A stretch of 64,000 nucleotides of DNA. Source: a virus. Taxonomy: Duplodnaviria; Caudoviricetes. Of this stretch, positions 59,423 through 61,456 are shown piece by piece. Under the pieces are notes generated by a model. The model was given only the letters and a program-made list of their open reading frames with translations, made no database searches and was not told the origin of the DNA. Made by a program: the position numbers and the translations under genes. Positions within the stretch are counted from its first letter, which is position 1. Every line of letters starts with the position of its first letter. The stretch is from the IMG/VR virus record IMGVR_UViG_3300034073_003276; one strand, written 5' to 3'.

Positions 59423-59534
59423 TTTAGTATTGCAACCTTCTTATGTAGTAGTTTAATAATGATAATGGTCTGTGAGTGATATGAGAGTTATAAAGACTCC
59501 GAAGAGTATGAAGAATGTGAGGATTGGGAGCATT

Positions 59535-59690
59535 TTATTGATGTTTTTGTAGGTATTTAATCATTTCCTGTAAATATTCAGTTGCTTTATCCCAATTTCC
59601 ATTAAATCTTTCTTCTAATTGATTATAAATTTTTTCTGCTCTTTCATATTCAAGTCCAGTTGATTGAATAAATCCTTCTTTAGTAATCAT
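59535..59690 (-). CDS. 51-aa hypothetical protein
   Basis: Manual translation MITKEGFIQSTGLEYERAEKIYNQLEERF...; overlaps the endonuclease stop. Confidence 0.45.
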   Translation of the reverse strand: MITKEGFIQSTGLEYERAEKIYNQLEERFNGNWDKATEYLQEMIKYLQKHQ

Positions 59691-60294
59691 AATGTTTTAG
59701 TGTTTTTTCTGTAAGGTTAATGATTTCAGTTATAGGCAATTCTACCATATAACACTCTGTATATCCACTATCTGTGGTCTTAAAATTAATTTTATAATTT
59801 TGATATTTTTGATGAATAAACTTTTCAAGGTGATGCACTTGATAATGTATACCTTTCCATATTTTTATTACACTATGAAGTTTATTTTTAGTATGATTTG
59901 ATAGTTTATTAAAACTCCTACCAACTTTATAAACTAATTTTCCATCAAGATAAACAATCACCAAATACAAATAATCAGTATCAAAATATCTTTTACTCCA
60001 AGGATTTTGATAATTGTTTCCTTTTAATTTTTCTCCATATTTTTTAACTCTTTCATCAGTATCTTTTGTTAGACCTTTATTCCAAGATACTTGTGCTCCT
60101 TTTACTCCCTTATTCCAAGGTTCTTTTCCAATCTGCCATTCAGACCAATTCCTAGAAATATTACAAGATTTTATGTGCTTATATACACTCGGTTTTGGAA
60201 CATTAAGTTGTCTTGAAATCTCATAAGAAGAAAGACCAGACAAATACATTTGTTCCCAAAGTTTCTTATCATCATCAGTATATTTCACATTCAT
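59680..60294 (-). mobile_element. Putative endonuclease: HTH, WNKG repeats and a C-terminal GIY-YIG-like domain, directly downstream of psbA
   Basis: S.YEISRQLNV...VY HTH; EPWNKG/SWNKG; YLYLV...YKVGRS...LEK.IH; own TATAAATA promoter; start trimmed to MNVKY. Confidence 0.6.
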
Positions 60295-60324
60295 TGTGGT
60301 CTGCTCATAGTTATTATTATTTAT

Positions 60325-60348
60325 AAAAAAGAGACCTTTGCAGGTCTC
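60325..60348 (-). terminator. psbA terminator hairpin
   Basis: GAGACC-TGCAAA-GGTCTC-TTTTTT on the minus strand. Confidence 0.7.
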
Positions 60349-60376
60349 CATATTATACCATATATTTAGTTTTATA

Positions 60377-61456
60377 TCAACCGATTGAGGGGGCAGTGAG
60401 AGCAACTTCAGTTGTTGAAGCAGTAGCAAGGTCTAAAGGAAAATTATGTGCATTCCTTTCATGCATAACCTCAATACCAAGGTTTGCTCCATTTACCAAA
60501 TCTGCCCAAGTTTTAACTACACGACCTTGACTATCTTGAATGGATTGATTGAAATTAAATCCATTGAGATTAAATGCCATAGTGCTTACTCCAAGGGAAG
60601 TAAACCAAATTCCAATAACAGGGAGAGCAGCAAGGAAGAAGTGAAGTGAACGAGAATTATTAAAAGAAGCATATTGGAAAATAAGACGACCGAAATACCC
60701 GTGTGCAGCACAGATATTATAAGTTTCTTCTTCTTGACCAAACTTATACCCATAGTTTTGAGATTCTTGTTCTGTGGTTTCACGCACCAGGGAGGATGTC
60801 ACCAAAGAACCATGCATTGCTCCAGCAAATGCTCCACCAAAAACACCGATTACGCCCATCATATGGAATGGGTGCATCAGGATATTGTGCTCTGCCTGGA
60901 ACACAAGCATGTAGTTGAACGTACCAGAGATACCCAGAGGCATCGCATCAGAGAAAGAACCTTGACCGAAAGGATAGACCAGGAATACAGCAGAAGCAGC
61001 AGCAACAGGTGCGCTGTAAGCAACACAGATCCAAGGACGCATACCTAGACGGTAAGAGAGTTCCCACTCACGACCCATATAAGCATAAACACCAATGAGG
61101 AAGTGGAAGACAACCAGTTGGAAAGGACCACCGTTGTAAAGCCACTCATCCAGAGAGGCAGCTTCCCAGATTGGGTAAAAGTGCAGTCCAATTGCGTTGG
61201 ACGAAGGAACAACAGCACCAGAGATGATGTTGTTTCCATACATTAGAGAACCAGCAACGGGTTCACGAATACCATCAATGTCCACTGGGGGAGCACCGAT
61301 GAATGCAATGATGAAACAAGTTGTCGCAGCAAGCAGACAAGGAATCATCAGAACACCGAACCACCCCACATAAAGGCGGTTATCGGTTGAAGTAACCCAC
61401 TGGCAAAAAGATTCCCAGGGATTAGTAGAATTGCGTTGTGCAATAGAAGCAGTCAT
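60377..61456 (-). CDS. psbA: Photosystem II D1 protein (359 aa), atypical C-terminal half
   Basis: Unmistakable D1 sequence from MTASIAQR; Mn-cluster ligands retained; no intron seen. Confidence 0.98.

Follow-up and report, generated by a model that had tools for sequence, protein, structure and literature searches.

The endonuclease F-CphI and the psbA intron of phage S-PM2 are reportedly the pair for which Zeng, Bonocora, and Shub spoke of "collaborative homing" in 2009. Intron-less homing and marker exclusion by T4 endonucleases are said to have been treated by Belle in 2002 and Liu in 2003, and mosaic psbA genes in cyanophages were reportedly described by Zeidner in 2005, with no link to intron sites or endonucleases. 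F-CphI is a protein of 142 amino acids with an Endo VII motif, encoded by a free-standing gene right after the phage psbA, and the S-PM2 psbA carries a group I intron between codons 334 and 335 (Fang et al. 2018, PMC6083498). The T4 endonucleases SegF, SegG, and MobE are encoded between conserved genes; they cut the neighboring gene in genomes that do not have the endonuclease, with coconversion of the flanks, and sequence differences at the site give self-protection, all of which was demonstrated by crosses and cleavage mapping (Wilson and Edgell 2009, PMC2790892). Homing endonuclease genes of the T5orf172 type, most of them with CapR-type zinc-finger DNA-binding repeats, are located at the edge of blocks that related phages exchange, beside an important gene; arrangements resembling collaborative homing and turnover of endonuclease genes were noted in that survey, which reported no cyanophage psbA case (Barth et al. 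2023, PMC10448857).

The DNA analyzed here is a stretch of 64,000 nucleotides (the window), in which the following features make up the psbA locus.

60377..61456, minus strand: psbA (D1), 359 codons plus stop, intron-free and intact; Pfam Photo_RC.
60330..60349, minus strand: hairpin resembling a terminator, downstream of psbA; a T-run comes next, and TATAAATA precedes the endonuclease gene; consensus matches only.
59680..60294, minus strand: HE204, putative free-standing endonuclease gene, 204 amino acids (PHROG 681, Pfam T5orf172, fold search).
59535..59690, minus strand: ORF of 51 amino acids overlapping the endonuclease stop codon, inside a block 98% identical to contig L002.

The order psbA, endonuclease, small ORF is common to S-PM2 and the window, and most carriers of the HE204 clade have, as S-PM2 does, a small ORF-less group I intron in psbA; over part of its length, this intron shares 86% identity with that of S-PM2. 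However, HE204 is a T5orf172/GIY-YIG-like protein with an N-terminal helix-turn-helix and WNKG repeats, the intron associated with it is placed between codons 250 and 251 (the 250/251 site), and the psbA of the window has no intron but an amino acid change beside the site instead. To the S-PM2 model of collaborative homing, the locus adds the 250/251 intron site and an endonuclease family unrelated to that of F-CphI. Like the T4 enzymes, HE204 is free-standing between conserved genes and would cut its neighbor and coconvert the flanks, although here the case comes from comparative sequence only and the protected allele alters a universally invariant reaction-center residue. HE204 probably belongs to the same nuclease subfamily as the enzymes surveyed by Barth et al. 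and occupies the same kind of position, but it carries a helix-turn-helix and NUMOD3-like repeats. The locus would add a new variant to collaborative or intron-less homing.

We assign HE204 to the nucleases with moderate confidence. The predicted protein joins the N-terminal helix-turn-helix and the WNKG (NUMOD3-like) repeats to a C-terminal T5orf172/GIY-YIG-like domain with the motifs YLYLV...YKVGRS...GYTE. It matches PHROG 681, "endonuclease" (3.5e-12), while its match to T5orf172 (PF10544; E value, 0.0068; 17.3 bits) lies below the gathering threshold of 20 bits; this family is matched by 10 of 13 HE204 homologs, with a best E value of 6e-4. The motifs LY(L/F)...YKVGRS and G-(Y/M)-T-E are invariant across the homologs of HE204 and HE215 (36% identity), and both the GIY...YIG-like strand pair and the conserved acidic residue in the G-x-T-E motif are present in HE204. 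In the structural model (mean pLDDT, 63.6), the helix-turn-helix gave a fold match (Z score, 6.1), and the C-terminal domain resembled the GIY-YIG nucleases HIGLE (Z score, 5.0 over 85 residues) and Slx1 (Z score, 4.6), both scores being below the level at which the tool is reliable. A homolog of F-CphI was ruled out, since a tblastn search with HE204 against GenBank phages, S-PM2 included, gave no match.

The slot after psbA is variable and holds HE204, HE215, HE223 (a relative of HE204, 41% identical), or an Endo VII-like, GIY-YIG, or HNH gene, or is empty (59 of 70 ordinary loci). Endonuclease turnover can be seen in the window itself, where the remnant of an F-CphI-type (Endo VII) gene, its 3' end, lies behind HE204. 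It corresponds to the last 12 codons of the 51-amino-acid ORF (59535-59573), whose C-terminal LQEMIKYLQKHQ agrees at 11 of 12 residues with the C termini of the endonucleases of S-SRM01 and L196 and which at the DNA level is 93.5% identical over 31 nt.

The psbA product covers positions 1 to 259 of the 260 in the Photo_RC profile (PF00124; 5.9e-88, 294.9 bits). The ligand and redox residues Y161, D170, E189, H190, H198, H215, H272, H332, E333, D342, and A344 are kept, and so is S264; Mn, Fe, and YZ ligand residues are all present. The first-pass annotation, made from the letters alone, had listed these residues, apart from Y161 and H198, as retained, and all of them were seen. In what follows, type-F denotes a divergent AT-rich lineage of D1 alleles with L210F, F211A, S212G, and W278L, with or without V249C. 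Along the gene we distinguish the following segments.

60866..61456, minus strand: segment A, codons 1-197, ordinary Synechococcus-myovirus type, GC3 of 0.44.
60740..60865, minus strand: segment B, codons 198-239, type-F allele with M200, I203, and F210-A211-G212.
60740-60808, minus strand: divergent patch in segment B, codons 217-239, diverging from L002.
60377..60739, minus strand: segment C, codons 240-359, type-F, GC3 of 0.23, with C249, L278, and G323; in the block shared with L002.

The first-pass annotation had described a two-part chimera with a switch at about H198 and a shift in codon usage. The switch is there, both as a step in GC3 (single change-point test; permutation P = 0.0005) and as a maximum chi-square breakpoint at codon 198 against the nearest ordinary alleles, L054, L064, and L087 (P ≤ 0.0005). 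Two parts are too few, given that a further breakpoint was found at codon 240 against L002 (P ≤ 0.0005), which gives at least three segments, plus the patch at codons 217-239 relative to the closest relative. Segment A nests among ordinary alleles in the tree, with at most 86% DNA identity to GenBank cyanophages and 91% to the IMG/VR locus L054, and the 5' part is itself mosaic, its best match shifting from one subsection to the next. The nearest relative of segment B is L208 (94% and 89% identity); compared to L002, identity is 93% in codons 198-215 but 72% in codons 216-239, and the divergent patch begins at the intron site between codons 215 and 216 (215/216), which is occupied in L208 and L191. 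Segment C is 97 to 99% identical at the DNA level to L002 and L003, while the 3' half of the gene reaches at most 77% identity to GenBank cyanophages. Separate trees of the two parts, a check that the annotation had proposed, gave different nearest relatives; for the 3' part, grouping the window with its 5'-part neighbors was rejected by the AU test (P = 0.03), whereas for the 5' part, grouping it with L002 was not (P = 0.21).

GC3 falls from 0.44 in codons 1-197 to 0.36 in codons 198-239 and 0.23 in codons 240-359. The drop between the 5' and 3' parts (0.21) is not reached by any of the 79 ordinary viral alleles (maximum, 0.175), and the 3' value is below their minimum (0.31). The other genes of the window have a GC3 of 0.17 to 0.27, so that the 3' part fits the background of the phage and the 5' part is the outlier. 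The 3' half had been called recoded, a description that is not supported: its low GC3 spans 480 bp at the level of the genome background and is more likely the composition of the donor lineage than adaptive recoding. A search for type-F D1 in cellular genomes (one per species) gave best matches of 87% identity, all canonical at the signature sites; a host source was thus not found.

A rival origin of the mosaic would be an assembly chimera, in which reads of the psbA genes of two phages were joined at a conserved stretch. The gene is prone to misassembly, and the top-scoring sequences of the homology search (P0003-P0013) were tandem or duplicated D1 artifacts of assembly that we left out. However, this origin is extremely improbable, because contigs from other runs bridge the junctions. 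A contig of run X3 spans 59500-60906 with 0 differences from the window, a contig of run X4 covers 60681-60889, and one of run X5, a different study of seawater, covers 60675-60892 with one difference across the junctions; the junctions at codons 198 and 240 are bridged in X3 and X4 without differences, and read depth is similar on either side. The runs that hold this stretch carry the labels subsurface, soil, seawater, sediment, and freshwater.

The 3' end of psbA is likely coinherited with the endonuclease. The block formed by codons 240-359, HE204, and the 51-amino-acid ORF is ca. 98% identical to the metagenome contig L002; its limits lie at ca. 60750 and ca. 59530, with 70 to 85% identity upstream and none downstream. 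Independent pairs of HE204 loci repeat this pattern, with dense differences up to codons 237-247 followed by 97 to 100% identity to the 3' end. In the trees, the HE204 loci with the intron group together by their 3' exons (one clade; SH-aLRT, 95) but not by their 5' parts, which are scattered. All 16 IMG/VR homologs of HE204 (81 to 94% identity) lie directly downstream of psbA. As to the recurrent boundary, its use as a map of the cut site is weakened by its position in the stretch of lowest synonymous diversity of the gene.

Could ordinary homologous recombination be enough, without any drive by the endonuclease, with endonuclease and intron as bystanders and V249C as a neutral marker? Coinfecting cyanophages have long been known to swap parts of psbA, and by this account the crossovers would be resolved where the gene is most conserved. 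Patchy G+C content and intragenic recombination, as in the window, are established for psbA of Synechococcus myoviruses, where the patches were not tied to intron sites or endonucleases and no L210F/F211A/S212G/W278L lineage was described (Sullivan 2006, PMC1484495). Both breakpoints fall in the stretches of lowest synonymous diversity in psbA (codons 190-199 and 233-248), which favor any homologous recombination, and hence recurrent boundaries alone do not locate a cut. The mosaic nature of the 5' part and its nonsignificant AU test also fit this explanation. What it leaves unexplained is the near-identical block of psbA 3' end and endonuclease amid differing flanks, as well as the state of the 250/251 site across loci (below), and we consider it unlikely.

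The first-pass annotation had proposed that the endonuclease coconverts a cleavage-resistant half-gene, and had suggested a test of whether the signature of this half co-occurs with the enzyme. The 3' part does travel with the endonuclease, as the L002 block indicates, and an endonuclease gene occupies the slot after 14 of the 15 alleles with the FAGAMH/AALPV signature compared to 11 of 70 ordinary alleles. However, these endonucleases belong to at least four families, not to this enzyme alone, so that the signature marks a D1 lineage in endonuclease-rich phages rather than immunity to HE204.

The candidate for immunity is the codon beside the intron site of the relatives, which in the window would fall between 60707 and 60706.

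60710..60712, minus strand: codon 249, TGT (Cys for the invariant GTN Val), one codon 5' of the position of the 209-nt group I intron of the relatives.

In all 16 loci of the IMG/VR HE204 homologs, codons 250 and 251 are separated by an insert of 209 nt, scored as a group I intron by Rfam (92 bits), and 18 of the 20 copies of this intron with enough downstream sequence are accompanied by HE204 or HE223. Among the 22 HE204/HE223 loci, 18 have the intron, 3 have C249, and 1 has S247; the four intron-less carriers of the clade, the window included, therefore have C249 or S247. An uninterrupted canonical TYNIVAAH was found in none of the 22 loci but in 77 of 79 of the ordinary sample (Fisher's exact test, P = 3e-20, a value inflated by the kinship of the loci; counted as five lineages, the probability is ca. 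1e-8). C249 was absent from 80 cellular D1 proteins and from 512 GenBank phage records (the best match had one mismatch), and in the ordinary sample only L082 and L086 have it. It was found only in intron-less phage alleles, and in IMG/VR and the metagenomes an endonuclease gene adjoins seven of its eight allele groups. Neither the absence of uninterrupted canonical sites nor this distribution of C249 is explained by ordinary recombination. Considering that every HE204-clade locus has either the intron or a change at residue 247 or 249, V249C most likely shields psbA from cutting by the endonuclease, and for this residue the immunity proposed at first reading is likely, so that the proposal as a whole is partly supported.

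The association is broader than one enzyme. C249 is also found next to HNH and Endo VII-like genes and is thus not tied to HE204 alone, and further endonucleases accompany the 250/251 intron as well (F-CphI-like in S-SRM01, GIY-YIG in L229 and L236). In L022, the related HE215 sits beside an ordinary V249. Other replacements at residues 247-250 (T249, S247, L248/S250) are found in divergent alleles only; those of L201, L202, and L193/L194 adjoin an endonuclease gene or a remnant of one, and the locus L200 also has a replacement.

Judging from sequence comparisons, the psbA of this T4-like cyanophage is a natural recombinant, probably shaped by selfish homing elements in and beside the gene. 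Codons 1-197 come from the pool of ordinary Synechococcus myoviruses and the sequence from codon 198 on from the old, AT-rich type-F lineage, the part from about codon 240 to the stop having been inherited nearly unchanged together with HE204 and the small ORF. HE204 would cut ordinary intron-less psbA near the 250/251 insertion site, as suggested by the alleles that it accompanies, and repair from the endonuclease-bearing genome would copy HE204 along with the neighboring 3' part of psbA, a step that would amount to intron-less homing with coconversion. A genome with HE204 would have to protect its own psbA. Most carriers would do so by the 209-nt group I intron that splits the site, in the manner of collaborative homing in S-PM2, while this phage, which has no intron, would rely on V249C, a change from GTN to TGT that is one codon away from it. 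The locus offers a concrete and testable example of how a phage could tolerate a homing endonuclease next to psbA when no intron guards the target; by this proposal, one amino acid replacement would be enough, at a site where none of the cellular D1 proteins examined varies. A further suggestion is that intron and endonuclease sites organize much of the mosaicism known from cyanophage psbA.

V249C is one of a set of changes in D1, two others of which are located as follows.

60821..60829, minus strand: codons 210-212, TTT GCT GGA (F-A-G for the invariant L-F-S), 3 to 5 codons 5' of the 215/216 intron site of other alleles.
60623..60625, minus strand: codon 278, CTC (Leu for the invariant Trp), from the conservation comparison.

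A clustering of substitutions at near-invariant sites had been noted at first reading, and it stands for A203I, L210F, F211A, S212G, V249C, W278L, and R323G: the seven sites are invariant in 80 cellular D1 proteins from diverse cyanobacteria, and among 93 ordinary viral alleles F211, A203, and V249 are invariant and W278 is 99% conserved. The claim is weaker for L200M, which occurs in 1 of the 80 cellular proteins, and for M328I, at a site where cellular D1 proteins have M, F, or L. The bases of the window that are rare (≤2%) in ordinary viral alleles are all in codons 200-323 and all nonsynonymous. Could these changes be the decay of a gene whose 3' half degrades under relaxed selection? The replaced residues are precisely invariant ones, but the reading frame is intact, every cofactor ligand is retained, and the signature is conserved among distant alleles. 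Moreover, dN/dS is 0.06 to 0.09 (with saturated dS) among the type-F alleles that keep it, which indicates that the 3' part is not decaying; decay is hardly credible. The type-F D1 lineage appears to be functional and old.

L210 sits over PheoD1 (PMC3888939), F211 contacts the QB tail (PMC4030317), and W278 and L200 line one lipid/quinone pocket, the SQDG-tail/QD site (PMC10300377). The shared pocket suggests a coupling at the protein level, so L200M and W278L may be coadapted; FAGAMH and AALPV are invariably found together. This leads to the alternative of functional specialization, in which L200M, A203I, L210F, F211A, S212G, V249C, W278L, and R323G would be one coadapted set altering the pheophytin, QB, and QD pockets to the benefit of the phage in infection, with the endonucleases hitchhiking beside an allele that does well. 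The strong purifying selection on the signature despite saturated synonymous divergence, the contacts of L210 and F211, the alteration in the window of both residues of the shared pocket, and the constant pairing of the two motifs all speak for it. However, C249 occurs alone in otherwise canonical alleles with endonucleases alongside (the L082 group, L209, and L210), and alleles next to endonucleases have several different replacements at 247-250, a pattern more like escape than like a single optimum. As an account of the entire set we find specialization rather unlikely; it is compatible with protection from homing at codon 249 and competes with it mainly for residues 200-212 and 278. The changes at 200, 203, 210-212, 278, and 323 look like lineage markers of type-F, possibly coadapted within the protein.

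Protection from homing could be extended, tentatively and with less than even confidence, to a general proposal. Homing endonucleases and introns may impose diversifying selection on the D1 residues 5' of intron sites (247-250, perhaps 210-212), forcing replacements at positions invariant in cells, and this conflict would yield a functional D1 lineage whose pheophytin, QB, and QD pockets are altered and which spreads by homing and not by photosynthetic advantage. Whatever its origin, type-F is a natural D1 lineage under purifying selection whose changes (L210F, F211A, S212G, and W278L, in some alleles also V249C) lie in the pheophytin/quinone region, and it would be a ready-made variant for the study of QB/QD chemistry, herbicide binding, and D1 turnover. 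A comparison, made by hand, of the private substitutions of the window with the known intron sites gave no support for proximity in general (7 of 11 within 12 codons, against ca. 53% expected). The residues suggestively near such sites are only 249, at one codon, and 210-212, at 3 to 5 codons.

The mosaic structure of the window psbA and its unusual substitutions are real. The gene and its neighbors are arranged as follows:

61456-60377, minus strand: psbA (D1), 359 codons, intron-free, full-length Photo_RC match (5.9e-88)
60349-60330, minus strand: terminator-like hairpin after psbA
60294-59680, minus strand: HE204, a 204-aa ORF (free-standing endonuclease), next after the hairpin
59690-59535, minus strand: 51-aa ORF, overlapping the HE204 stop codon

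The GC content of third codon positions (GC3) decreases along psbA from 0.44 (codons 1-197) to 0.36 (198-239) and 0.23 (240-359; permutation p=0.0005), and the 3' value is lower than in every one of 79 ordinary viral alleles and equal to that of the neighboring phage genes (0.17-0.27). The maximum chi-square breakpoint against the closest ordinary alleles is at codon 198, in agreement with the switch placed there by the first-pass annotation. DNA identity to GenBank cyanophages is at most 86% for the 5' half and 77% for the 3' half. An assembly artefact was ruled out, since read depth is even over psbA and the junctions are bridged by contigs from other sequencing runs: one contig from run X3 spans 59500-60906 with zero differences, and contigs from X4 and X5 (a seawater run from a different study) cover 60681-60889 and 60675-60892, respectively. 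Several database D1 "proteins" (P0003-P0013) are tandem or partial D1 duplications that top homology searches through their summed score, and are most likely metagenome mis-assemblies.

Searching a database with the 3' half recovered a few metagenomic D1s sharing the signature FAGAMH/NICAAH/AALPV, an allele type named here type-F. Contig L002 is the nearest relative and has an endonuclease 98.5% identical to HE204, a divergent psbA 5' exon and an additional intron near codon 137 holding an HNH ORF. Identity between both psbA genes is 70-88% over codons 1-197, 93% over 198-215, 72% over 216-239, and 97-99% from 240 to the stop, and the stretch of high similarity also takes in HE204 and the 51-aa ORF, ending at about 59530, with no similarity beyond. 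Over codons 198-239, the closest allele is that of L208 (94% and 89%), a locus where introns interrupt psbA at 215|216 and 337|338 and the endonuclease is of the F-CphI type. The patches of difference among these close alleles start or stop at intron insertion sites. A far more divergent viral D1 (ca. 76% identical to that of the window), with residues I203, L278, L248, S250, and V214, is found at loci L193/L194, where psbA has introns near codons 186 and 334 and an HE215-like endonuclease remnant downstream.

HE204 has an N-terminal helix-turn-helix (fold matches with Z up to 6.1), two WNKG (NUMOD3-like) repeats in the middle and a C-terminal domain with the motifs LYL...YKVGRS...GYTE. This last domain matched PHROG 681 "endonuclease" (3.5e-12) and, slightly under threshold, Pfam T5orf172, while its model aligned weakly to the GIY-YIG nucleases HIGLE and Slx1 (Z 4.6-5.0). 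HE204 is not related to F-CphI, the Endo VII-type enzyme in the same slot of S-PM2. Variation among the HE204 homologues (L006-L021 and the window) is mostly in the DNA-binding N-terminus (residues 1-75), the nuclease domain being almost invariant. A sigma-70-like promoter match (60352-60380, minus strand; TTGATA, 17-nt spacer, TATAAT, 11/12 positions) overlaps the psbA stop codon, ahead of both the terminator and HE204, and TATAAATA lies between the terminator and HE204; both are consensus matches only.

All 16 HE204 homologues in IMG/VR (81-94% identity) are directly downstream of psbA, and in all 16 loci a 209-nt group I intron (Rfam, 92 bits) separates psbA codons 250 and 251. This intron is 97.6% identical to that of the freshwater phage S-SRM01 and partially homologous to that of S-PM2, which is located instead at 334|335. 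Conversely, HE204 or HE223 (a 41%-identical relative) follows 18 of the 20 copies of the 250|251 intron with downstream sequence. The four intron-less loci of the HE204 clade have altered residues next to the site, C249 in the window, L002, and L003 and S247 in L201. The uninterrupted canonical TYNIVAAH is present in 0/22 HE204/HE223-clade loci versus 77/79 of the ordinary sample (Fisher p=3e-20; ca. 1e-8 counting the clade as five lineages, relatedness not being fully corrected in either figure). C249 was not found in 80 cellular D1s or 512 GenBank phage records. The IMG/VR pattern scan and the metagenome contigs found earlier provided eight groups of C249 alleles, and the seven with a determined context all adjoin an endonuclease gene (HE204, HE215, HE215-like, HNH, or Endo VII-like). 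Judging from these sequence associations, HE204 probably targets the 250|251 site, which carriers would shield with the intron or, in the window, with V249C. Loci L006-L009, with the window-type HE204 N-terminus, have a second intron at 337|338.

The first-pass annotation had proposed that the endonuclease co-converts the 3' half of the gene, and separate phylogenies support co-inheritance of the two: the 3' exons of the HE204 loci group in a single clade, and the 5' parts of these loci are scattered among ordinary alleles. Forcing the window together with its 5'-part neighbors was rejected for the 3' part (AU test, p=0.03); for the 5' part, the reciprocal constraint gave no significant result (p=0.21). 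In independent pairs of HE204 loci, differences are dense as far as codons 237-247, and identity over the remainder up to the 3' end is 97-100%. Third-position diversity among 77 ordinary alleles reaches its minimum for the gene in codons 233-248 (60713-60760), and codons 190-199 (60860-60889) are also among the least diverse, pointing to constraint at the nucleotide level. Homologous exchange of any kind would tend to resolve within these stretches; hence, the boundaries are consistent with cleavage near codon 250, although they are no proof of it. The best-supported reading is that the psbA 3' end is co-inherited with a free-standing homing endonuclease, putatively of the T5orf172 type, and that the low GC3 and the substitutions other than V249C are features of the donor D1 lineage. 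Precedents exist for mosaic psbA genes (PMC1484495), for collaborative homing (PMC6083498), and for T5orf172 endonuclease genes located at boundaries of exchange (PMC10448857); what is new is the endonuclease family in the post-psbA slot, the intron site partnered with it, and an allele that lacks introns and is altered at an invariant D1 residue.

Endonuclease genes from four or more families lie next to the type-F alleles found by a pattern scan, and some of these alleles have introns at 215|216, 334|335, or 337|338. An endonuclease gene lies beside 14 of the 15 type-F alleles with known context versus 11/70 ordinary alleles (p=1.5e-8). The suggested association between signature and endonuclease is thus present, but FAGAMH/AALPV is no evidence of immunity to HE204 specifically; given this diversity of families, these motifs rather mark a D1 lineage of endonuclease-rich phages.

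As the annotation had claimed, the substitutions affect near-invariant positions while the ligand residues are all present. None of 80 cellular D1s (picocyanobacteria to Nostocales) departs from A203, L210, F211, S212, V249, W278, or R323, and in 93 ordinary viral alleles these residues are also invariant or almost so. The rare bases of the window psbA are all within codons 200-323 and all protein-changing. Decay of the gene was ruled out by the dN/dS among alleles sharing the signature (0.06-0.09), which, with dS saturated at 1.3-1.7, indicates that the variant D1 is old and under purifying selection. Published work assigns the altered residues to functional pockets: L210 lies over PheoD1 (PMC3888939) and F211 on the QB tail (PMC4030317), while L200 and W278 jointly surround an SQDG tail where the QD site has been proposed (PMC10300377). 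The replacement of both L200 and W278 in the window suggests that the two are coupled within the protein.

The last 12 codons of the 51-aa ORF (59535-59573, minus strand) encode LQEMIKYLQKHQ, matching the F-CphI-type C-terminus at 11/12 residues, and at the DNA level its 3' end is 93.5% identical to F-CphI-type genes over 31 nt. This end thus appears, by sequence similarity, to be the relic of an earlier F-CphI-type gene displaced by HE204. In L001 (7000-7700; P0017), a type-F psbA stops at about codon 334; D1 residues 298-333 then recur in a second, canonical copy, with remnants of HE215-like and HNH genes behind it, an arrangement that may be a snapshot of incomplete or illegitimate homing. 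In L005 (5559-7164; P0016), psbA exon 1 extends to codon 80 and a GIY-YIG-like ORF then continues in frame into D1, which resumes near codon 132; codons 81-131 could not be located, and this psbA may be multiply interrupted or damaged. Inserts in viral psbA (L002, L007, L102, L103, L185, L191, L193, L208, L211) occur at many positions (approximately codons 61, 92, 107, 137, 185/187, 215|216, 250|251, 331|332, 334|335, and 337|338), several of them containing HNH or GIY-YIG ORFs, and the 215|216 site lies between the codons of H215, an iron ligand, and G216.
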